DNA of 55,788 nt, taken from the NCBI GenBank assembly GCA_041666685.1, contig JBAYGJ010000002.1, positions 1 to 55,788 on the forward strand, given 5' to 3'. The position numbers and the translations under genes are program-made. Source of the DNA: Patescibacteria group bacterium. Its GTDB lineage: Bacteria; Patescibacteriota; Patescibacteriia; UBA10025; JAHIVO01. The notes under the pieces are model-generated. The model ran no database searches, had not been told where the DNA came from, and was given only the letters and a program-made list of their open reading frames with translations. Of this stretch, positions 20,964 to 52,996 are shown in pieces (within the stretch, counting starts at the first letter, position 1; each line of letters opens with the position of its first letter).

Positions 20964-21116
20964 AGCGGGGAACGGCCCGCCTCGACTCGCATTGTTCGTC
21001 GACGCGAGGCGGGGACTTCTTCTCCCCCAATCTCGTCGCAAGCCTCCTCGATTTCCTCCGAAGCCTGTGGCCCTCGCTTCAACTCCTTCGGAGCGCTCGG
21101 GTCCGCTTCGAATCCG
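20964..21116 (-). repeat. GC-rich hairpin element carrying a 12-nt copy of the tRNA-Gly(GCC) 3' end
   Basis: 20964-20975 (agcggggaacgg) is identical to 21176-21187. It is followed by the stems CCCGCCTCG/CGAGGCGGG (20976-21013) and CTCCGAAG/CTTCGGAG (21056-21093), and a T-loop-like TTCGAA at about 21107. Confidence 0.5.
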
Positions 21117-21247: not shown

Positions 21248-21391
21248 ATTTATTATGAAGGGACACCTTCGGTTTACCTTCATCTCATCCTTTCCCTCAA
21301 AGGGATGCCTTGCCCGGCGTGAAGCCGAGGCTTGGCATGATGATTTCAAGTACTGTCAGAATGTCAAAATAATCATTTGTTGTCAATACAC

Positions 21392-21483
21392 TGGAGGCGT
21401 GAGCGGGAATTCTTCTCGTTCCTCGAAGCCGGCCGCCCTTCGCTTTATCACCTTCGGTGCGCTCTGGTCGGCTGCAATTCCCG
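21392..21483 (-). repeat. tRNA-Cys 3'-end copy (with CCA) whose T-loop holds a ~62-nt insert
   Basis: 21395-21411 is 17/17 identical to 21503-21519 and is preceded by tgg (CCA), which the intact gene lacks. CGGGAATT (21404-21411) and AATTCCCG (21476-21483) close a hairpin around a GC-rich insert containing cccttcgc. Confidence 0.65.
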
Positions 21484-21502
21484 TATATTTATTAAGGTGA
21501 CT

Positions 21503-21574
21503 AGGCGTGAGCGGGAATTGCACCCGCGTATAGAGGTTTTGCAGACCTCTGCCTTACTACTTGGCTATCACGCC
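21503..21574 (-). tRNA. tRNA-Cys (anticodon GCA), no encoded CCA
   Basis: Reverse complement: GGCGTGA-TA-GCCA..GGC-A-GAGGT-CTGCAAA-ACCTC-TATAC-GCGGG-TGCAATT-CCCGC-TCACGCC-T. The U73 discriminator and A13/A22 mismatch are typical of tRNA-Cys. Confidence 0.85.
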
Positions 21575-21578
21575 TTAA

Positions 21579-21643
21579 AGAGGTGGTTTTGTCCCGCATT
21601 CGTGGCGGGGCAGACCTCTGCCTTACCACTTGGCAACGTAGCC
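21579..21643 (-). pseudogene. tRNA-Cys-like 5' two-thirds with a different acceptor strand and a hairpin inserted in the anticodon loop
   Basis: 21610-21643 matches the D arm and anticodon-stem region of the intact gene (21541-21574), but the acceptor is GGCTACG instead of GGCGTGA. After CTGC a 19-nt hairpin (CCCGC-cacgaat-GCGGG, 21593-21609) interrupts the anticodon. There is no T arm or 3' strand. Confidence 0.6.
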
Positions 21644-21741
21644 ATTAGGGCGTATAGATATGGTATCAATCTGGAGGTGTTTTTTCAAGGGTTGGCCAAA
21701 AACAAACCCCGCTCATAACTGGGCGGGGCTTGCTGGTTGTT

Positions 21742-22425: not shown

Positions 22426-23442
22426 TTATCGTGTATGCGCCAATTCAATCAGCCTGGATAGTAATTTTTGATATGGGATACCACTGGCTTGCCACATTTT
22501 GGGGTACATGGAGATGTCGGCGAAGCCGGGCAGCGTGTTTATCTCGTTTAAGTATATTTTGCCGGTCTTTTTCACCAGGAAGTCCACCCGCGCTAACCCT
22601 TCGCAATTTGCCAAACGGTAAGCATCACGGGCTAATATTTTAATCTCGTCCAGGATTTTTTTAGGCAGTTGTGCCGGAATTTGCGGGTGGCTTCGCGAGT
22701 CGAAATATTTATCGTCATAATCGTAAAATTCGTGTGAGGTGACAATACGGCCGGGTATAGCAACTTTGAAGTTTTTTATTGAATTACCTGATACCGCAAC
22801 TTCTATTTCATAGCAGTTTTCAACTGATTCTTCGATAATTACCTTTACGTCATATGCGCGGGCGAATTTGATTGCCTGGGCCAGCTTTTTCTTATCCTTC
22901 ACTTTGGTGATGCCGACCGATGATCCAGTGCAGGCCGGTTTTACAAAAACAGGAAATTTTAGCTGTAACGCCTGGCTAAGACTTTTCTTGATTTCTTTTG
23001 TGGCGTGACGTTTGTAATCAATAATAACAAACTTCGGTTTTGGTAGGCCGTGGTATTTCATCAGTTCGTTGAATATCCCTTTATCCAAGCACAATGACGA
23101 TGAAAGGACGTCCGCACCGACAAATGGGATATTGAGCATACGGAACATGCCTTGGATGGTGCCGTCTTCGCCGCCAATGCCGTGCATAACCGGAAAAGCC
23201 ACGTCGATCTGACGGCTGAGGGTATTCAGGTCGGCTGGCTTCAGTCGGCCAGTCCGCTTGTTTTCAATATGGGCGATGATGCCTGTACCAGTCCAAAACT
23301 TTCCTTTCTTATCAATAAAAAATTCACGCACGCGGAAATGCTTGCGGTCAACGGCGGCAATAACGTTTTTGGCTGACATGAGCGATACCTCATGTTCCGG
23401 AGACTGTCCGCCGAAGAATATGCCGACCGTAGTTTTTTTCAT
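22426..23442 (-). CDS. ddl: D-alanine--D-alanine ligase
   Basis: VGIFFGGQSPEHEVS.., HGIGGEDGTIQG, ATP-grasp core, EINTLPGF. Confidence 0.93.
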   Translation of the reverse strand: MKKTTVGIFFGGQSPEHEVSLMSAKNVIAAVDRKHFRVREFFIDKKGKFWTGTGIIAHIENKRTGRLKPADLNTLSRQIDVAFPVMHGIGGEDGTIQGMFRMLNIPFVGADVLSSSLCLDKGIFNELMKYHGLPKPKFVIIDYKRHATKEIKKSLSQALQLKFPVFVKPACTGSSVGITKVKDKKKLAQAIKFARAYDVKVIIEESVENCYEIEVAVSGNSIKNFKVAIPGRIVTSHEFYDYDDKYFDSRSHPQIPAQLPKKILDEIKILARDAYRLANCEGLARVDFLVKKTGKIYLNEINTLPGFADISMYPKMWQASGIPYQKLLSRLIELAHTR

Positions 23443-23451
23443 TGTGAGTAA

Positions 23452-23580
23452 TTAAAGCTCTTCTTCAGAAATTACTTTAACGTCATTTTTTTCAGCAGTT
23501 CGATTACTTTTTTCATTTGGCTTGCTCATGCCGTCGTATCTGCAATAAACCCCTAACAAGCATGCGCTGCACAGTTTCAT
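23452..23580 (-). pseudogene. 42-aa remnant of a DUF523 (YbbK-like) gene
   Basis: MKLCSACLLGVYCRYDG matches the conserved N-terminus of ~150-aa DUF523 proteins. The ORF stops after 42 codons with unrelated sequence. Confidence 0.4.
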
Positions 23581-23589
23581 ATTTTGAAA

Positions 23590-23601
23590 AGCGGGTAGGG
23601 A
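23590..23601 (-). repeat. 12-nt copy of the tRNA-Gly(TCC) 3' end (outer 3' piece)
   Basis: agcgggtaggga is identical to 23620-23631. Confidence 0.6.
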
Positions 23602-23606
23602 CTTAT

Positions 23607-23704
23607 TTAAGTCACATTGAGCGGGTAGGGAGAATCGAACTCCCGGCAACAGGTTGGAAACCTGTGGTATTACCACTATACGATACCCGCTCAATGTGAC
23701 TTAA
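23607..23704. repeat. perfect 21-nt inverted repeat framing the intact tRNA-Gly(TCC)
   Basis: ttaagtcacattgagcgggta (23607-23627) is the exact reverse complement of tacccgctcaatgtgacttaa (23684-23704). This extends the 7-bp acceptor stem by 14 bp. Confidence 0.9.
23620..23690 (-). tRNA. tRNA-Gly (anticodon TCC), no encoded CCA
   Basis: Reverse complement: GCGGGTA-TC-GTAT-AGTGGTA-ATAC-C-ACAGG-TTTCCAA-CCTGT-TGCC-GGGAG-TTCGATT-CTCCC-TACCCGC-T. Confidence 0.9.
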
Positions 23705-23782
23705 TTGTTGTAAATATGTTTGTGAATCGCCCGTGAACCACTGAATGGTTCAGGGCGTCATGTACCCTTGAGTGGTACATAA

Positions 23783-23837
23783 CGAACTCCCGGCAACAGG
23801 TTGGAAACCTGTGGTATTGCCACTATACGATACCCGC
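23783..23837 (-). pseudogene. 55-nt 5' copy of tRNA-Gly(TCC), positions 1-55, truncated in the T-loop (outer 5' piece)
   Basis: 54/55 identical to 23636-23690 (single g/a difference at 23819 vs 23672). The copy ends at ..GGGAGTTCG. Confidence 0.85.
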
Positions 23838-23987
23838 ATTAATGCTAAGGATGCCAAAGAAAATTATTAAGGTCAATATAGTAATTTCCTTGCCTCATTG
23901 TAACCTCAACTCCTTCTTTTTTCAAGTGCAGGGTTCGGTGTCGTCGGGTTCTTTTGTATTTATCATAAACAGGATACAATAGAACAT

Positions 23988-24608
23988 ATGGCACAACCAA
24001 CCGTGTCAATCATCCTCCCGACATATAACCGGGCCGAATACCTTGATCGATGCATTTCCTCGGTTGAGCGACAAACGTTTCCTGATTGGGAACTGATTAT
24101 TGTAGATGACGGCAGCACCGACGGCAGCAAGAAAATAATCGATGCACATATCCGGCAAAGCTCCCGGATACGGTATACGTTCCAAAACAATCAGGGAGCG
24201 GCGTACGCGGTTAATGCGGGGATCGGGATGGCTCGGGGCACATACCTGGCTTTCATCGACAGTGATGATGAATATTCGCCTGCCCACCTCAAGCGCCATG
24301 TCGAGTATTTACGCGCTCATCCGGCAGTAGACATGGTGCATGGCAGTTTCTCGGTCATCGGCAGCCCGTATGTGAAAGACAAAAATGATATGACGAAAAT
24401 GATCCACCTATCGAAATGCGCGGTATGCGGGACGTTTTTCGGCAAACGCCATGTGTTTACCCAACTGCACGGATTCAAGCCCCTGTACTATAGTAAGGAT
24501 TCGGAATTTTTTGAGCGTGCAGAAAAGGAATTCTCCCTGGTCAGGCTGGACTACGGGACATATATTTACCACCGGGATACGCCCGGCAGCAAGACAAACA
24601 TCGTATAA
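23988..24608 (+). CDS. family-2 glycosyltransferase
   Basis: VSIILPTYNRAEYL.., IIVDDGSTDGS, FIDSDDEY (DXD) motifs. Confidence 0.85.
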   Translation: MAQPTVSIILPTYNRAEYLDRCISSVERQTFPDWELIIVDDGSTDGSKKIIDAHIRQSSRIRYTFQNNQGAAYAVNAGIGMARGTYLAFIDSDDEYSPAHLKRHVEYLRAHPAVDMVHGSFSVIGSPYVKDKNDMTKMIHLSKCAVCGTFFGKRHVFTQLHGFKPLYYSKDSEFFERAEKEFSLVRLDYGTYIYHRDTPGSKTNIV

Positions 24609-24627
24609 GCAGCACCAATATATTGCG

Positions 24628-24969
24628 TTAGGGATGCCAGAGGAATTCGGCCAGGTCAATATAAAAATTGCCCTGTCTTTTTGAAACGCTGACCCCTTCT
24701 TTTCTCAGGAGTTCGGCTTGGAGGTTTTTTGAATGTATTTGGCAGGTGGTACTGATGCGGCCGGCCCGGTTGATGACGCGCTGCCAGGGCACCAGATGCA
24801 GCTGGCTGTCCGGCAGGACGTGTAAGGCCCAGCCGACCATCCTGGCGGCCCGTGGCGAGCCCAGGAGTGCGGCAATCTGGCCATAGGTGGCGACTTTGCC
24901 ACGGGGAATTTGTTTCACCAACGTATAGACGTCAGCAAAGAAGTTGGTTTTATTTTTTAAGGACGGCAT
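24628..24969 (-). CDS. MGMT-family DNA-binding protein, probably alkyltransferase-like (ATL, no active-site Cys)
   Basis: IPRGKVATYGQIAALLGSPRAARMVGWAL helix-turn-helix. The PCHRV motif is replaced by PWQRV, as in ATL proteins. Confidence 0.7.
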   Translation of the reverse strand: MPSLKNKTNFFADVYTLVKQIPRGKVATYGQIAALLGSPRAARMVGWALHVLPDSQLHLVPWQRVINRAGRISTTCQIHSKNLQAELLRKEGVSVSKRQGNFYIDLAEFLWHP

Positions 24970-30275: not shown

Positions 30276-30420
30276 TGGTCGGGGTGCCCGGGACCCTTCG
30301 ACTTCGCTCAGGGCAGGCTTGTCACCGCCATCCTGTCATCTGACAGGATAGGTCCCGGCGGACCCCCCCGACGATACCGTCGGAAATGATTCCAGCCCTC
30401 CCCAGAGACTGGTCCGCTGA
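30276..30420 (-). repeat. tRNA-Pro 3'-end copy (with CCA) joined to a ~130-nt hairpin-rich insert
   Basis: 30276-30291 is 16/16 identical to 30449-30464, with a similar 3' flank. CCGGGACC (30288-30295) pairs with GGTCCCGG (30351-30358) around the motif cccttcgacttcgctcaggg (30294-30313) and the hairpin ATCCTGTCA/TGACAGGAT. Confidence 0.7.
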
Positions 30421-32435: not shown

Positions 32436-32930
32436 TTACTTCAATTTGTTTAGTTGAGTTTTATCCTGGCTGAATTTTACCTCTAAATCAGTAAATAATT
32501 CCAAAACTCCATCTTTAAGAAGCCCCCGAACAATTTGAACCGCAAAATTTGAATCCTGCGCAAGATCGTCAATGCGCACTTTTCGGGCCCGCATTAACCA
32601 GGGCAGATCCTCCCTTGTAGCTCCGAAATAAATATTTGGAATTTTGGCCTGAAAAATTGCCGCACCACACATGATGCAGGGTTCATGGGTTGAGTAAATT
32701 GTACAATCGCTTAAATTATGCGTCCGGAGTATTGTGCAGGCTTTCCGAAGTGCCTGCATTTCTGCGTGTGCAGTCGCGTCACCTTTTGCAATATTTTCTG
32801 CGTGGCCTTTTGCAATAACTTTGCCATTGCACGTTATTACTGCACCAAACGGAAAATCGCCAGCTAGCTTCGCTTTCTTAGCTTCCTGGATGGCAAGGCG
32901 CATGAACGTGTGGTGTAGATTTTCCCTCAT
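32436..32930 (-). CDS. CDA-fold nucleoside/tRNA-adenosine deaminase (TadA or guanine-deaminase type)
   Basis: HAEMQAL and HEPCIMCGAAI zinc-binding motifs. 164 aa. Confidence 0.75.
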   Translation of the reverse strand: MRENLHHTFMRLAIQEAKKAKLAGDFPFGAVITCNGKVIAKGHAENIAKGDATAHAEMQALRKACTILRTHNLSDCTIYSTHEPCIMCGAAIFQAKIPNIYFGATREDLPWLMRARKVRIDDLAQDSNFAVQIVRGLLKDGVLELFTDLEVKFSQDKTQLNKLK

Positions 32931-33019: not shown

Positions 33020-33057
33020 CCGAGGGCCACCTACGGTCGGACTGGCGACTCAAGGAT
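33020..33057 (-). repeat. tRNA-Phe 3'-half copy with a substituted T-loop
   Basis: ccgagggcca (33020-29), cggactggcgac (33038-49) and caaggat (33051-57) match 33084-93, 33098-109 and 33111-17. The T-loop gaat is replaced by cctacggt. Confidence 0.65.
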
Positions 33058-33081
33058 GAAAAGGGTAATTCTGCTCCCAAA

Positions 33082-33153
33082 TGCCGAGGGCCAGAATCGG
33101 ACTGGCGACGCAAGGATTTTCAGTCCTTCGCTCTACCACTGAGCTACCTCGGC
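33082..33153 (-). tRNA. tRNA-Phe (anticodon GAA), no encoded CCA
   Basis: Reverse complement: GCCGAGG-TA-GCTC-AGTGGTA-GAGC-G-AAGGA-CTGAAAA-TCCTT-GCGTC-GCCAG-TCCGATT-CTGGC-CCTCGGC-A. Confidence 0.9.
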
Positions 33154-33163
33154 ATGTGACCGT

Positions 33164-33261
33164 CCTCGGCATTTGGGAGTAATTAGCACCATTCGCTCTT
33201 CCGGGGCGCTTCTATGGGCGCGCCCGCTCTGCTTGTGCAGAGCCCACTTCGCTACCTCGGC
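33164..33261 (-). repeat. two upstream copies of the tRNA-Phe 5' acceptor strand separated by GC hairpins
   Basis: cctcggc (33164-70) plus atttgggag (33171-79) is the exact complement of the tRNA 3' strand plus trailer, giving a 16-bp alternative helix. gctacctcggc (33251-61) is 11/11 identical to 33143-53 and is followed on the minus strand by the hairpins GCTCTGCACAAGCAGAGC and GGGCGCGCCC. Confidence 0.65.
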
Positions 33262-33300
33262 GGATTCACCGGCATAAGCGAGTATTATGATACGTGTCCA

Positions 33301-33377
33301 TGGTGGGGACGAGAGGAGTTGAACCTCTGACCTTCACAATGTCAATGTGACGCTCTAACCAACTGAGCTACGTCCCC
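33301..33377 (-). tRNA. tRNA-Val (anticodon GAC), CCA encoded
   Basis: Reverse complement: GGGGACG-TA-GCTC-AGTTGGTTA-GAGC-G-TCACA-TTGACAT-TGTGA-AGGTC-AGAGG-TTCAACT-CCTCT-CGTCCCC-A-CCA. Confidence 0.9.
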
Positions 33378-33383
33378 GTGGTC

Positions 33384-33466
33384 TGGTGGGCGACCCAGGA
33401 GTTGCACCCTTCGACTTCGCCACCTCGATTTCACTCGGTGGCTTCGCTCAGGGTAGGCCTGGGACC
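33384..33466 (-). repeat. tRNA-Ile 3'-third copy (with full CCA) carrying a ~50-nt insert between the T-stem 5' strand and the T-loop
   Basis: 33385-33408 is 24/24 identical to 33518-33541, and cctgggacc (33458-66) equals 33540-48. The insert carries a split cccttcgacttcgc / cttcgctcaggg motif around the hairpin GCCACC..GGTGGC. Confidence 0.8.
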
Positions 33467-33519
33467 GCTCAAGTATCCAATAACAAATTTCTTCAGCATG
33501 AATGCTATTATTCCCTCGG

Positions 33520-33593
33520 TGGGCGACCCAGGAGTTGCACCTGGGACCTCGTCATTATCAGTGACGCGCTCTAACTACCTGAGCTAGTCGCCC
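33520..33593 (-). tRNA. tRNA-Ile (anticodon GAT); only CC of CCA encoded
   Basis: Reverse complement: GGGCGAC-TA-GCTC-AGGTAGTTA-GAGC-G-CGTCA-CTGATAA-TGACG-AGGTC-CCAGG-TGCAACT-CCTGG-GTCGCCC-A. Leader TTCCCTCAGT and trailer ACCGAGGGAA add 10 bp (one A/C mismatch) to the acceptor helix. Confidence 0.9.
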
Positions 33594-33623
33594 ACTGAGG
33601 GAACAAGTATGGCTACCTGCTTG

Positions 33624-33655
33624 CCCCGAGCGAAGTCGAGGGGAGCTAGTCGCCC
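33624..33655 (-). repeat. 13-nt tRNA-Ile 5' copy fused to the shared GC motif
   Basis: gagctagtcgccc (33643-55) is identical to 33581-93. The adjacent ccccgagcgaagtcgagggg (33624-43) is the shared motif in the orientation complementary to the copy inside the 3' fragment. Confidence 0.7.
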
Positions 33656-33756
33656 ATGCCTTTTTTCCAACAAAAAAACTACAACCTGATGGTACTATTG
33701 TAGTTTATCATACATAAAAAATCAAATGACTGGAGGGATGCTTATAAACCCCTTAG

Positions 33757-33787
33757 CAACCAGCAGGTGGTAAAGAATACGAATCAA
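33757..33787 (-). promoter_or_regulatory. 3' strand of the 16S rRNA processing stem
   Basis: caaccagcaggtggtaaagaatacgaatcaa is nearly perfectly complementary to 35389-35418 on the other side of the 16S gene. Confidence 0.7.
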
Positions 33788-33851
33788 CTCAATGATGTAT
33801 ATCTATACGTACGTCAGAGACGCACGAATATCGACAAATTGGTTACTCCTT

Positions 33852-35347
<1,496 letters not shown>

Positions 35348-35388
35348 TAGTTGGAGTTTTTAACTAGAAAAACTCCCAAAAAAAGGAA

Positions 35389-45683: not shown

Positions 45684-45724
45684 ATTTACCTCTCAATGTA
45701 CGTGTGTTTGTTTTAAATTACAAA

Positions 45725-45753
45725 AGTGTACGATATTATCAGCTCCTCGTCAA
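45725..45753 (-). promoter_or_regulatory. sigma-70-type promoter upstream of the sigma-factor gene
   Basis: On the minus strand: TTGACG (45753-45748), a 17-nt spacer, then TACACT (45730-45725). Confidence 0.5.
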
Positions 45754-45861
45754 GGGACGGGTAGGGATCCCTCAACATTGCCACTTCGACTTCGCTCGTG
45801 GGCTACGTTCGGGATATTTTTTCTGCCGAAATTTTTTCGCTCAGGAGGAACTTGAAAATTC

Positions 45862-45900
45862 GAGAAAAAATAAATACCGCCAAGTCGGATGACTCGGCGG
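45862..45900 (-). terminator. rho-independent terminator downstream of pyrBI
   Basis: On the minus strand: CCGCCGAGTC-atcc-GACTTGGCGG (10 bp including one G-U pair) followed by a T-rich tract. Confidence 0.7.
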
Positions 45901-45927
45901 GGTATGGGTAGCGAAAAAGGTTCGATG

Positions 45928-52306: not shown

Positions 52307-52996
52307 CTACCAGCCTTTTGCTTTCAGTCCGGCTTCGGCTGCGGCGACTTGTGCCTCTTGTTTTGACAATCCCTCACCGGTCGCAATCTGCTCTTTGCCC
52401 AGGAATAATCCGATGACGAAATTTTTTGCGTGGTCTGGGCCGTTTTCGGACAGAACCTGGTAGGACGGGGTGATCCCGTAATTTTCCTGGCTCAATTCCT
52501 GGAACCGGCTTTTCGGGTCTTGGTAGGCTTTGTTGGCGATGATCCCTTCCAAATGGATAAGGATCCGTTCGTGGATGAATTTTTTTGCCGGCTCCCATCC
52601 CTGATCCAGGTAGATGGCGCCGATCAGCGCTTCAAAAGCGTTGGCCATGATGAACTGCCTGGCCTTGGAGTTGGCGTCTTTTGATTCCCCCTTTGACAGA
52701 TATAAGTAGCCGTTCAGATCGCAGGTCAGGGCGATTTGGGCAAGCATTTTTGAATTGACCAGGCTGGCGCGCCAGTTGGTTAGGTCGCCCTCGGGATTCG
52801 GGTACCTCGCGTAGAGGTATTCCGTCACGATCAGCTCCAGTACCGCATCGCCCAAAAATTCCAGCCGTTCATTATGCGGCAGGGGGAAATCCGGATGCTC
52901 ATTGAGATACGAACGATGGACCATGGACTGGCGGAGCAGGTCCTGGTTCTTGAACGTGATGTTGATGGTTTTTTCTAGCTCGTTTATTTCTTTCAT
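52307..52996 (-). CDS. rnc: ribonuclease III
   Basis: NERLEFLGDAVLEL signature and a C-terminal dsRBD (..GPDHAKNF...GEGLSKQEAQVAAA). Confidence 0.93.
   Translation of the reverse strand: MKEINELEKTINITFKNQDLLRQSMVHRSYLNEHPDFPLPHNERLEFLGDAVLELIVTEYLYARYPNPEGDLTNWRASLVNSKMLAQIALTCDLNGYLYLSKGESKDANSKARQFIMANAFEALIGAIYLDQGWEPAKKFIHERILIHLEGIIANKAYQDPKSRFQELSQENYGITPSYQVLSENGPDHAKNFVIGLFLGKEQIATGEGLSKQEAQVAAAEAGLKAKGW

Follow-up and report, generated by a model that had tools for sequence, protein, structure and literature searches.

A tRNA-Gly(UCC) gene nested within an older copy of itself in Patescibacteria: a possible folded tRNA precursor

Anatomy of the Locus

The window (W), by which we mean the whole stretch of 55,788 nt that was analysed, carries at 23590-23837 on its minus strand a complete tRNA-Gly(UCC) gene that sits inside the interrupted remains of another copy of the same gene; we call these the inner and the outer copy (Table 1). 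ARAGORN and Rfam return a single tRNA-Gly(UCC) here, at 23619/23620-23690(-) with 63.3 bits. Together with a repeat search, they bear out what a first-pass annotation had read from the letters, namely the intact tRNA, outer copies of it that match at 54/55 and 12/12 positions, and a perfect 21-bp inverted repeat. The repeat search places a 55-nt direct repeat (98%) at 23636-23690 / 23783-23837, a 12-nt direct repeat (100%) at 23590-23601 / 23620-23631, and the inverted repeat (21 nt, perfect) at 23607-23627 / 23684-23704; it also recovers both of the hairpins that had been seen in the remaining segment. Neither the 55-nt repeat nor the inverted repeat can reasonably be put down to chance. The 12-mer, taken alone, is marginal across the window (blastn E = 0.17); it lies on the same strand, 18 nt from the gene, and its place is kept in two other species. 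The inner and outer copies in W differ at position 20 (U in the inner copy, C in the outer).

The locus had been described as split by one 181-nt insert, with four bases (ATTC) missing from the outer gene. The nested layout stands, but the missing bases were a misreading: ATTC lies directly after hairpin 2, so that the outer gene lacks none of its 71 positions. It is also interrupted twice rather than once, maybe by two events, both with edges in the T arm. One interruption is the 55-nt, two-hairpin insert in the T-loop, and the other is a 122-nt block (23602-23723) that contains a spacer, the clamp, and the inner tRNA. The clamp (14 bp) and the acceptor stem (7 bp) together make up the perfect helix of 21 bp.

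The protein genes beside the locus run from a full MGMT-like gene through a GT2 gene to a 3' fragment of an old MGMT-like gene, of which W retains just the promoter-bearing end. In L001 the DUF523-like gene, truncated in W, is full-length at the same place. In W, L001, L002, and L003 alike, 8-12 nt separate the outer 3' end from the start of the next gene. L001 and L002 have the promoter-like site at the orthologous position too, and the scan of W, L001, and L002 returned no sigma-70-like promoter for the spacer that precedes the inner tRNA. Please note that the scan works by consensus matching and that the site falls within coding sequence, which is conserved in any case; we speak of the site as promoter-like. 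The earlier report of rnc at 52307 is correct, and its product carries Ribonuclease_3 and dsrm domains.

Table 1. Features at and around the nested tRNA-Gly(UCC) locus of the window
Feature	Position	Strand	Remarks
Promoter-like site TTGAAA-17-TACAAT (10/12)	23897-23925	-	Upstream of outer 5' piece
MGMT-like C-terminal fragment, LKKEGVEVTMRQGNYYIDLNNFLWHP and stop	23845-23925	-	Holds the promoter-like site; translation compared with L001, L002, L003
Outer tRNA-Gly 5' piece	23783-23837	-	tRNA positions 1-55; 54/55 identical to inner gene
55-nt insert in outer T-loop	23728-23782	-	Hairpins 1 and 2
Hairpin 1, ATGTACC/GGTACAT	23760-23780	-	Inside outer T-loop insert
Hairpin 2, CGCCCTGAACCA/TGGTTCACGGGCG	23728-23757	-	Inside outer T-loop insert
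ATTC	23724-23727	-	Four T-loop/T-stem bases of outer gene, directly after hairpin 2
Spacer ACAAACATATTTACAACAA	23705-23723	-	Before clamp; 61-72% identity between genomes, relative to the longer sequence; ..ACAACAA conserved
Clamp 5' arm (leader) TTAAGTCACATTGA	23691-23704	-	Inverted repeat
Inner intact tRNA-Gly(UCC)	23620-23690	-	No encoded CCA; putative working gene
Clamp 3' arm (trailer) CAATGTGACTTAA	23607-23619	-	With discriminator U 23620 pairs with 5' arm; acceptor stem extended to 21 bp
Linker ATAAG	23602-23606	-	
Outer tRNA-Gly 3' piece TCCCTACCCGCT	23590-23601	-	tRNA positions 60-71; paired with outer 5' piece in the predicted fold
Truncated DUF523-like ORF (2-thiouracil desulfurase family)	23452-23580	-	ATG 9 nt past outer 3' end
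ddl	22426-23442	-	Follows the DUF523-like ORF
rnc, RNase III (Ribonuclease_3 and dsrm domains)	52307-52996	-	Candidate enzyme for the clamp helix

Related Genomes and the Age of the Layout

The loci compared with the window are L001-L003, L081, L094, and L103-L113. L103 is on the same contig as L002 and does not count as an extra occurrence. Members of the clade were also sought through homologues of Ddl and of the MGMT-like protein. The nested layout is common to W, L001, and L002, which on Ddl identities form a clade with L003 and L105 outside it, and whose Ddl proteins are 77-80% identical. Its presence in two other species means that the layout is old and did not arise in assembly.

A natural worry would be that the assembly took a chimeric or collapsed path through tRNA sequence common to many organisms of the sample, given that this sequence is identical in many Patescibacteria contigs and that the short-read contigs L081, L106, and L107 break inside tRNA-Gly. 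The three homologous nested layouts nevertheless come from independent assemblies, and they have diverged and show compensatory changes; orthologous yet diverged junctions are not what an artefact is expected to leave, and we give this explanation almost no credence.

Empty sites in relatives, which the first-pass annotation had proposed looking for, do exist. L003 and L108-L113 have a plain tRNA-Gly(UCC), without nesting, right behind the MGMT-like gene, and in L003 it stands directly before ddl. The outer 3' end of L002, ..CCGCTCCAG, agrees with the 3' end of the L003 tRNA. These sequence comparisons support the view that the outer pieces occupy the ancestral position of the gene, between the MGMT-like gene and ddl. 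Elsewhere, L105 has no tRNA before ddl, and the L104 contig, whose Ddl is the closest to that of W (85% identity), begins 196 nt before ddl with a stretch that does not align to the nested locus. A scan of metagenomes with an exact 25-mer of the tRNA gave 23 loci, of which L103 is nested and the others are plain, without a clamp. The same 25-mer had no match in viral contigs, and blastn against phage records returned generic tRNA-Gly matches only.

Between the genomes with the nested layout, the tRNA-derived pieces have changed little: the outer 5' segments are identical at 53-55 of 55 nt, and the short outer 3' piece matches at 8-9 of the 9 positions shared with the other genomes (CCTACCCGCT in L001, CTATCCGCTCCA in L002). 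The inserts and spacers are 33-83% identical. Two hairpins lie at the same place in L001 and L002 with sequences that differ from those of W, and the counterparts of ATTC are found in GATTCCC (L001) and GCTCCC (L002). The outer copy of L001 and L002 carries an insert in the anticodon loop that is absent from W. L001 also has a perfect 84-nt repeat that takes in the spacer and a clamp arm, and recent tandem partial duplications have occurred at its locus.

This last point bears on the earlier statement that the locus is not a simple tandem duplication. In a plain tandem, both ends of the partial copy lie on the same side of the intact gene and the spacer is repeated upstream. In W and L002 the outer 3' end instead comes after the inner gene, and the outer 5' piece borders directly on the ancestral flank, and the statement holds for them; in L001, with its partial tandem duplications at the same locus, it holds less well. 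Plain tandems in various stages of decay, without conserved structure, had been named as what would tell against anything unusual here. The relatives give a mixed answer, since L001 has partial tandems but the inverted repeat and the hairpins are conserved.

Folding and Covariation

RNAfold, which the first-pass annotation had suggested running, gives exactly the nested structure for 23585-23842(-), at -114.2 kcal/mol with z = -11. The minimum-energy folds of W, L001, and L002 are all nested, with the outer acceptor helix closing the structure (z = -11, -7.5, and -9.4, respectively). Between species, 4 of the 14 clamp pairs are altered on both sides, with one mismatched cell, compared with 0-1 pairs in all of the slid controls. 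The outer acceptor stem of L002 reads GCGGATA/TATCCGC against GCGGGTA/TACCCGC elsewhere, so that one pair is altered on both sides, and hairpin 2 is perfect in W, L001, and L002 with a different sequence in each. This pattern supports the inverted repeat being a selected helix. Because the layout occurs in three genomes only, the covariation amounts to one contrast of W with L001/L002 and one further pair in L002. It should also be remembered that intrastrand DNA template switching can create perfect palindromes and "correct" them without any selection at the RNA level.

Helices of leader and trailer that likewise extend the acceptor stem are found at other tRNAs (L094 Val, 9 bp; L001 Pro, 8 bp; L109 Pro), and the tRNA-Ile in the rRNA operon of W is enclosed by a long leader-trailer helix. 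Of the three options first put forward for the locus (a small element that supplies a replacement tRNA, an rRNA-like processing helix, and a decoy or regulatory RNA), the processing helix fits best, in view of the clamp covariation, the presence of rnc, and the helices at other tRNAs. No evidence was found for a decoy or regulatory RNA. At gathering thresholds, Rfam returned tRNAs and 16S rRNA only across the window, the locus, L001-L003, and six other Patescibacteria loci; at relaxed thresholds (E up to 10 on 23450-23950 and up to 1 at the related loci) it gave weak, sub-threshold chance matches and no intron, ribozyme, or sRNA family.

Self-Fragments at Other tRNA Genes

The locus does not stand alone. 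In the window, self-fragments lie close to seven of the 10 tRNAs, often accompanied by GC-rich hairpins at loop positions; other Patescibacteria contigs have tRNAs flanked in this way too. Their share falls with distance from W (7/10 in W, 2-3/5 in L001, 1/4 in L002, and 0/5 in L003). The nested Gly(UCC) locus takes to its extreme a tendency shared by most tRNA genes of this genome.

Direct repeats of the 3' end, 12-24 nt long, are found at Lys, Cys, Gly(GCC), Pro, and Ile. At tRNA-Cys of W, the upstream and downstream fragments are different alleles that cannot pair with each other, and 5' and 3' fragments can therefore originate in separate events; compared with the plain locus of L002, W has a simple 89-nt insert between 17-nt direct repeats of the tRNA 3' end. 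The tRNA-Cys of L001 shows recent tandem partial duplications as well. At tRNA-Phe of W, a perfect 16-bp inverted repeat joins the inner 3' end to the duplicated 5' strand, not to the gene's own 5' end, and looks mutational rather than functional.

All located inserts in outer copies lie in loops or junctions (the D-loop, the anticodon loop after nt 34/35, and the T-loop), and none lies within a helix. The ends of the anticodon-loop insert are alike in Gly and Cys (YCCCGC...GCGGGA). The second tRNA-Phe gene of L111 has an insert in each of the three loops, and L109 Pro has a 31-nt direct repeat around an element of ~190 nt without an ORF. Trailers of W Pro and W Ile share CCCTGAGCGAAGTCGAAGG, which recurs with one change at L001 Gly(GCC), and the trailers of W Cys and W Gly(GCC) look homologous by eye. 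A single family of 3' trailer blocks was considered and rejected, as their joint alignment is incoherent (mean column identity 40%); the subgroups Cys/Gly(GCC) and Pro/Ile/L001 Gly(GCC) are alike by eye only.

Inserts in three loops invite the thought that the outer copy works as a gene, that its inserts are introns, with the inner tRNA inside one of them, and that splicing at the RNA level removes them all. The second tRNA-Phe of L111 would suit such an arrangement, as would the positions of the outer-copy inserts. At 18-122 nt, however, the inserts are too short for group I introns, and we know of none under roughly 200 nt. Neither group I nor group II introns were matched in Rfam at the relaxed thresholds, and many of the partial copies lack whole tRNA halves. 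The T arm can be rebuilt neither in L002, where GGGAGTTC..GCTCCC is without the GATT bases, nor in L001, where the 3' strand of the T-stem is damaged. A spliced outer tRNA was rejected on this last ground, and we regard it as extremely improbable.

A mobile element deserves longer consideration. Here, a unit of hairpins, spacer, clamp, tRNA, and clamp, without an ORF, would enter the T arm of a matching tRNA gene and supply its replacement, moved by a recombinase encoded elsewhere in the manner of miniature or cis-mobilisable integrative elements. The outer pieces at the ancestral flanks and the inner copy with new flanks are as such an insertion would leave them. The edges lie in the T arm and the anticodon loop, where integrases that target tRNA genes reportedly tend to cross over. 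A target duplication of 4-5 nt could be the source of the remains TCCC (W, right), CTCCC (L002, left), and CCC / CC (L001, both sides); the repeats at other tRNAs vary from 12 to 31 nt. The trailers of different tRNAs share related GC-rich blocks, and the element at L109 Pro sits within its direct repeat. The clamp sequence is nevertheless unique within the window, where its 14-nt arm has no second occurrence with up to 2 mismatches, and no sequence relationship links the clamps of Gly, Phe, and Ile. Terminal inverted repeats in several copies, the mark of a MITE-like element, are not seen, with the clamp arm at the nested locus only. Among the neighbouring ORFs scanned with Pfam at Gly(UCC), Gly(GCC)/Leu, Pro, Phe, Arg, Lys, and the rRNA operon, none is an integrase or transposase, and two have no Pfam match. 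No copy turned up in the viral contigs or phage records, each target would require a different cargo tRNA, and all three occurrences are orthologous, so there is no evidence of independent insertions. We saw no sign of an autonomous element, given that there is no ORF, no integrase beside the tRNAs tested, and no second copy of the clamp in the window; the mobilised version of the small element that the first-pass annotation had envisaged we consider improbable.

A Folded Precursor or a Scar

The explanation to which we tentatively lean is that the locus is a gene-replacement scar that now acts as one folded precursor, with the inner tRNA freed from an rRNA-like leader-trailer helix, probably by RNase III. 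An ancestral tRNA-Gly(UCC) at the conserved place between the MGMT-like gene and ddl would have been interrupted twice in its T arm in the common ancestor of the small clade, once by the two-hairpin insert and once by a block with a complete second copy of the tRNA and a 14-bp leader/trailer clamp around it. Partial duplication or recombination at the tRNA gene is the probable origin, and the same process may have produced the self-fragments at most tRNA genes of this genome.

The inner copy, with no promoter-like site of its own, would be the working tRNA, and its transcription would begin at the putative old promoter, which lies in the terminal part of the MGMT-like gene, and run through the outer 5' remnant. 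In the transcript, the outer acceptor and T helices would close the whole structure, and the clamp would lengthen the inner acceptor stem to 21 bp, a length that may block RNase P; leader pairing that lengthens the acceptor stem reportedly inhibits the bacterial enzyme (PMC9433436). A double-strand-specific nuclease, most likely RNase III, would open the clamp first, as in rRNA leader-trailer stalks, and RNase P, RNase Z, and the CCA-adding enzyme would finish the tRNA. Among the RNase genes that CPR bacteria reportedly keep are rnc, rnj, and pnp (PMC12641178). As for the outer helix, it probably continues to set the precursor off from the downstream mRNA.

Gene conversion or recent duplication is clearly active here and speaks against a folded precursor. 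It is visible in the 54/55 identity of the W outer copy, which lacks the anticodon-loop insert of L001 and L002, and in the perfect 84-nt repeat of L001, and it could keep the outer pieces alike without any function. A neutral scar is a serious rival, although we think it rather unlikely. The outer pieces, the hairpins, and the inverted repeat would be debris of repeated partial duplication and recombination at tRNA genes, kept alike by gene conversion from the intact copy; the inner tRNA alone would matter, and the rest would be tolerated leader and trailer. Several routes could lead there, among them homology-facilitated illegitimate recombination with imported DNA, template switching at a highly structured and highly transcribed gene, and leftover att repeats.

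Much of the evidence from other tRNAs suits a neutral scar, including the self-fragments that thin out away from W, the recent tandem duplications of L001 at Gly and Cys, the mixed alleles and the simple 89-nt insert at W Cys, and the W Phe repeat that pairs with a duplicated strand. The pattern of a new copy with a leftover old end is repeated at the neighbouring MGMT-like gene. Moreover, the 71-nt inner sequence is that of plain tRNA-Gly genes in unrelated Patescibacteria contigs, so that tRNA genes could serve as recombination anchors. Mere debris, however, would hardly explain why the layout persists in three species whose spacers have diverged strongly and whose tRNA-derived pieces have not. 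The identity tracts of L002 are 20-25 nt long and bounded by inserts, which is short for conversion, compensatory changes affect four clamp pairs and the outer acceptor pair of L002, and every located insert avoids the helices. Patescibacteria genomes are described as small, at 0.5-1.5 Mbp (PMC12641178), and much inert DNA is not expected in them.

A broader suggestion is more speculative still, and we consider it unlikely. Patescibacteria may have an undescribed class of small, GC-rich, structured inserts without ORFs that enter tRNA loops (D, anticodon after nt 34/35, and T) and are tolerated only by way of a fresh tRNA copy. The outer copies, though disabled, would persist as scaffolds in the shape of a tRNA, with three tasks: to close the precursor, to offer the inner pre-tRNA in its clamp to RNase III, and to show where the downstream mRNA has its 5' end. 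In that case the Gly(UCC) locus would be no scar but a functional and conserved precursor, a tRNA within a tRNA.

Each outcome would have its use. If the folded precursor is real, a bacterial tRNA is matured from a double-stranded stalk, as rRNA is, and an older tRNA shell is reused as the precursor's frame and as a cleavage mark for the next mRNA, that of the cell-wall gene ddl; this would be a new route of tRNA maturation in a phylum with a reportedly reduced set of RNases (PMC12641178). If the locus is a neutral scar, most tRNA genes of the lineage are hot spots of partial duplication and replacement and may act as recombination anchors in these organisms, which probably depend on imported DNA, and tRNA annotation is affected through pseudo-tRNA calls and contig breaks inside tRNA genes.

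Comparison with Known Systems

Our literature search did not find nested tRNA genes described in bacteria, and it is worthwhile to set the locus beside its nearest parallels. The scars of integrative elements (attL/attR at tRNA 3' ends; PMC9897764) resemble it in the copy of the tRNA 3' end downstream of an intact gene, in edges that lie in the T arm (or, at other tRNAs here, in the anticodon loop), in the empty sites of relatives, and in a pattern spread over many tRNAs. They differ in that here the repeats are 18 nt apart (18-200 nt at other tRNAs), the neighbours are ddl, the DUF523 remnant, GT2, and the MGMT-like gene rather than an integrase or other element genes, a 5' fragment on the other side puts the intact gene wholly inside new sequence, and the nested layout is conserved across species.

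A second parallel is offered by rRNA leader-trailer helices and by the intervening sequences of 23S rRNA, both of them RNase III targets (PMC10250234). A helix of about two turns encloses a functional RNA and covaries between species (three sequences), rnc is present, and the tRNA-Ile in the rRNA operon of the window has such a long helix. Here, in contrast, a single tRNA outside the rRNA operon is involved, the predicted helix directly continues the acceptor stem, the base of the structure is formed by both ends of the tRNA's older copy, and RNase III is a candidate for cutting it.

Archaea and red algae have disrupted tRNA genes (multi-intron, split, and permuted; PMC3978253, PMC3218864, PMC4090602), in which short structured inserts likewise occupy the D-, anticodon-, and T-loops; the present host is a bacterium, an intact copy exists, and the outer copies of L001 and L002 cannot be rebuilt. 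Group I introns of bacterial tRNA genes (PMC3984707) likewise lie in tRNA loops, in the same kind of host gene. A 2025 preprint by Nakagawa et al., cited in PMC12641178, reports by its title a new group I intron site in tRNA genes of Patescibacteria, the same phylum as the nested locus. The inserts described here differ in giving no Rfam signal, in being much too short, and in that one of them contains a whole tRNA.

In tandem tRNA arrays, RNase P separates the members of a polycistronic transcript (PMC4176162). The nested locus differs from these in having one intact copy only and, in W and L002, an older 3' end beyond that copy, which makes it nested and not side by side. The likeness lies in several copies of the same tRNA on what would be one transcript, in tRNA-like folds that may be cleavage marks beside an mRNA, and in the true tandem partial repeats of L001.

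Anatomy of the locus

ARAGORN and Rfam agree on a single tRNA here (63.3 bits), an intact tRNA-Gly(UCC) with an older copy of the same gene lying in pieces on either side of it. The first-pass annotation had described this as a tRNA gene split in its T-loop by a 181-nt insert carrying an intact copy, and a repeat search bore out the direct repeats of 55 nt (98%) and 12 nt (100%); it also recovered the two hairpins and the 21-nt inverted repeat, whose arms match perfectly. The ATTC that it took to be missing is, in fact, present directly 3' of the second hairpin, and the outer gene is therefore complete, with two interruptions. RNAfold predicts a nested fold for the locus (-114.2 kcal/mol, z = -11), which is no independent evidence because such a fold is expected from sequence built of tRNA copies.

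Features of the nested locus and of related sites in the window
Feature	Position	Strand
MGMT-like gene, full length, more divergent	24628-24969	-
GT2 glycosyltransferase gene	23988-24608	+
MGMT-like ORF fragment, end (native gene, final 26 codons)	23845-23925	-
Outer tRNA piece, positions 1-55	23837-23783	-
Two hairpins	23782-23728	-
ATTC	23727-23724	-
Spacer	23723-23705	-
Clamp arm TTAAGTCACATTGA	23704-23691	-
Intact tRNA-Gly(UCC)	23690-23620	-
Clamp arm CAATGTGACTTAA	23619-23607	-
ATAAG	23606-23602	-
Outer piece TCCCTACCCGCT	23601-23590	-
Next ORF, ATG	9 nt beyond outer 3' piece	-
DUF523-like gene	23452-23580	-
Partial tRNA copies (Lys, Arg, Gly(GCC), Cys, Pro, Phe, Ile)	1480-1498, 2102-2116, 20964-20975, 21395-21411, 21610-21634, 30276-30291, 33037-33057, 33385-33408, 33643-33655	-
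tRNA-Cys locus	21390-21650	-
Deaminase gene	32436-32930
tRNA-Phe locus	33037-33270	-
16S rRNA, tRNA-Ile, tRNA-Val, tRNA-Phe	33081-35350	-
tRNA-Ile locus	33380-33662	-
CCCTGAGCGAAGTCGAAGG or its complement, near different tRNAs	30295-30313, 33408-33453, 33624-33642
CCCTGAGCGAAGTCGAAGG motif, within intergenic region 45684-45927	45780-45850
rnc	52307-52996

Relatives with the nested and the plain state

The nearest relatives of the window's Ddl protein in Patescibacteria MAGs are those of contigs L001 (78%), L002 (77%) and L003 (72%). Upstream of ddl, L001 and L002 show the nested layout of the window, which is known from these three genomes only; L103, a match from a public metagenome scan by exact 25-mer query, which diverged relatives would escape, is the same contig as L002. 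L003 carries a plain tRNA-Gly(UCC) with encoded CCA in exactly the same place, with the MGMT-like gene on one side and ddl on the other. Similarly, six more distant contigs found through the MGMT-like protein (L108-L113) have a plain tRNA gene 3' of that gene. Ddl identities group the window with L104, then L001 and L002, and leave L003 and L105 outside, so the plain gene represents the ancestral state, and the nested layout is a derived character shared within a small clade. An assembly artefact is very unlikely, since orthologous yet diverged junctions in three independent assemblies argue strongly against it.

Three short-read contigs (L081, L106, L107) stop within tRNA-Gly(UCC), which fits assembly breaks at sequence common to many organisms or locally repeated. 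L106 is the nearest MGMT-like relative of L001 (88%), and its locus could therefore be nested too.

The L002 locus runs GCGGATATCG, an 18-nt hairpin plus CAA, GTATAGTGGTAATACCACAGGTTTC, a 59-nt insert (TCCCG...GCGGGA), CAACCTGTTACCGGGAGTTC, two hairpins, GCTCCC, spacer, clamp (the 14-bp leader-trailer helix that prolongs the inner acceptor stem to 21 bp), inner tRNA, clamp, spacer and, at its end, CTATCCGCT-CCA-GACTT-ATG, the start of ddl. In L001 there is a homologous anticodon-loop insert (76 nt) in addition to the T-loop hairpins, and a recent tandem duplication in the form of an 84-nt perfect repeat (GGCGGGGATTCCC, spacer, clamp arm and tRNA positions 1-34). A spliced tRNA with several introns is a reading of such inserts that we consider most improbable.

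Conservation and covariation

The inner tRNA has the same sequence in all three genomes. Identity between genomes is 53-55/55 nt for the outer 5' tRNA-derived segments, 8-9/9 shared positions for the outer 3' piece and 33-83% for inserts and spacers. The clamp is TTAAGTCACATTGA in the window and TTAATCCTTATTGA in L001 and L002: both sides have changed at four pairs, with one mismatched cell (in L002), and slid controls gave 0-1. The outer acceptor stem of L002 (GCGGATA/TATCCGC, versus GCGGGTA/TACCCGC) adds one further compensated pair. In the minimum-energy folds of L002 and L001 the outer acceptor helix closes the structure (z = -7.5 and -9.4, respectively).

We tentatively favor reading the locus as a gene-replacement scar that became, or remained, a component of a structured precursor. 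In this view, the working tRNA would be the inner gene, transcribed from the ancestral promoter and held by a covarying leader-trailer helix that would serve in the manner of an rRNA processing stalk. The outer acceptor/T helix would close the transcript and probably still marks the border to the downstream mRNA. tRNA fragments at tRNA loci, leader-trailer helices and tandem tRNA copies are already-known kinds of feature. In a limited literature search, we found no description of a tRNA gene nested in its predecessor and conserved between species with a covarying 14-bp clamp, and no account of dense self-fragments and loop-position hairpins around Patescibacteria tRNA genes.

Promoter and neighboring genes

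The sole sigma-70-like site in the region (TTGAAA-17-TACAAT, 10/12) sits within the end of the MGMT-like gene, some 60 nt ahead of the outer 5' piece, and the window, L001 and L002 all have it in the orthologous position. The call is a consensus match in conserved coding sequence. The spacer before the inner tRNA, scanned in the same three genomes, has no comparable site. We infer a single transcript that starts at the old promoter, takes in the outer 5' piece, the inner tRNA and the outer 3' piece, and continues into the downstream gene. That gene starts 8-12 nt beyond the outer 3' end in these genomes and in L003; it is ddl in L002 and L003 and a DUF523 gene in the window and in L001. Between tRNA and ddl, the DUF523-like gene (2-thiouracil desulfurase family) is shortened to ~42 codons in the window, full length in L001 and absent from L002 and L003.

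In the window, the remnant of the native MGMT-like gene that bears the promoter-like site is retained beside the tRNA, with the glycosyltransferase gene and a second, divergent MGMT-like gene beyond it. The native gene has been replaced here, and 23845-24969 is a gene-replacement scar in protein-coding DNA.

Clamp helices and ribonucleases

The clamp is absent from all 22 plain tRNA-Gly(UCC) genes of this sequence. Other helices that extend an acceptor stem occur elsewhere in Patescibacteria: 9 bp at L094 Val, 8 bp at L001 Pro, ~12 bp with a mismatch at L109 Pro and 7 + 2 bp at the window's tRNA-Ile. This tRNA-Ile, in the rRNA operon, is at the tip of a long leader-trailer helix (z = -5.6), in which leader CCCTCGACTTCGCTCGGGG pairs with trailer CCCTGAGCGAAG..GAAGTCGAAGG; the helix also has an inner clamp (TTCCCTC/GAGGGAA), with copies of that tRNA's own ends at the base. 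The 16S/tRNA cluster leads into the deaminase gene with no 23S rRNA gene after it, so the rRNA genes appear unlinked.

RNase III, RNase J and PNPase are reportedly retained in CPR bacteria (PMC12641178), and the window encodes rnc. Pairing between leader and 3' end that prolongs the acceptor stem is reported to inhibit bacterial RNase P (PMC9433436); a continuous 21-bp helix should therefore need prior opening.

Self-fragments at other tRNA genes

By blastn of each tRNA against the window, 8/10 have same-strand self-fragments close by. These lie upstream only for Arg (positions 1-15), downstream only for Lys (55-73), Gly(GCC) (61-72), Pro (62-77) and Phe (38-58), and on both sides for Cys (11-35; 57-73), Gly(UCC) (1-55; 60-71) and Ile (1-13; 53-76). 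The partial copies are within ~250 nt of the intact genes, in many cases with GC-rich hairpins between. Under a strict rule (at least 12 consecutive identical nt, no more than 300 nt from the tRNA), the counts are 7/10 in the window, 2/5 in L001 (3/5 by blast), 1/4 in L002, 0/5 in L003 and 10/72 across all other loci compared, every match being in a Patescibacteria contig.

GC-rich hairpins occupy loop positions of the upstream copies: the D-loop in the window's Arg and Ile, L002 Gly and the outer Cys copy of L001, and the anticodon loop, after nt 34/35, in L001 and L002 Gly and in Cys of the window and L001, with similar ends (YCCCGC...GCGGGA). At six tRNAs, blocks of 18-200 nt are bounded by 12-24-nt direct repeats; the window's Cys locus, compared with the plain one of L002, has an 89-nt insert between 17-nt direct repeats of the tRNA 3' end. 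Several downstream blocks have an AT-rich start, an inverted T-loop copy inside and common motifs. A mobile mini-element carrying the tRNA would fit the edges and a possible 4-5-nt target duplication, but no second non-orthologous copy, common terminal repeat or recombinase was found, and we consider it improbable.

The window's Cys locus has a GGCTACG-type 5' fragment with an anticodon-loop hairpin, then an intact GGCGTGA-type gene whose downstream fragment (...TCACGCC) is of its own allele. The flanks are thus different alleles, not halves of one gene, and 5' and 3' fragments can arise separately. This speaks against the picture of one split gene. L001 (5860-6215) has the reverse order, GGCGTGA-type 5' fragments with a D-loop hairpin and then a GGCCACG fragment and intact GGCCACG gene, in two tandem units estimated to be ~90% alike. 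At the window's Phe locus, the 3' end of the tRNA can pair with a second copy of the 5' acceptor strand that lies 9 nt upstream of the genuine one; the resulting inverted repeat (CTCCCAAATGCCGAGG / CCTCGGCATTTGGGAG) is perfect over 16 bp and looks like a template-switching product.

These swapped Cys alleles and the pairing with a duplicated strand at Phe support the main rival reading, a neutral scar: all of this would be tolerated debris, with gene conversion keeping the pieces uniform and template switching creating and perfecting the palindromes. The perfect recent duplications in L001, the window's outer copy without the old anticodon-loop insert and the same kind of scar at the neighboring MGMT-like gene also favor it; we hold it to be somewhat less likely than the structured precursor.

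Related arrangements occur in other contigs. L111 (1131-1520; also L112 and L113) has an intact tRNA-Phe followed by a second, "exploded" one, whose recognizable segments are set apart by inserts (~30-80 nt) in all three loops (D, anticodon and T); the motif of its first insert (AAGCGAAGCAAA..TTTGCTT..GACGAGGCG) is common to tRNA-adjoining blocks in L109 and, in looser form, L084 and L099. At L109 Pro (429-720), a 31-nt direct repeat (tRNA 3' end plus clamp arm) surrounds an ORF-less block of ~190 nt that includes the 3' portion of another, different Pro-like tRNA; of the two repeat copies, it is the distal one that complements the leader perfectly. At L089 Gly(UCC), a T-loop copy in inverted orientation is accompanied by a GC-rich block and by a direct repeat.

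CCCTGAGCGAAGTCGAAGG occurs in the window's Pro and Ile trailers and, differing by one change, in the trailer of L001 Gly(GCC); the Ile leader carries its complement. Near different tRNAs it stands in both orientations; its sites include L001 6588-6606 and L087 downstream of tRNA-Phe (2337-2411), and it is also found in a non-tRNA intergenic region of the window and in other Patescibacteria contigs. It matches no Rfam family and may be a dispersed structured repeat. In addition, a small conserved hairpin, GAGCGAGGCTCGCCGTAG(G/A)CGGCCCGCT, likewise without an Rfam match, lies directly 3' of tRNA-Gly in L083, L090, L096 (Gly(UCC)) and L001 (6610-6680), with a looser version downstream of L097 tRNA-Gly(UCC); its last bases (CCCGCT) repeat the 3' end of the tRNA.
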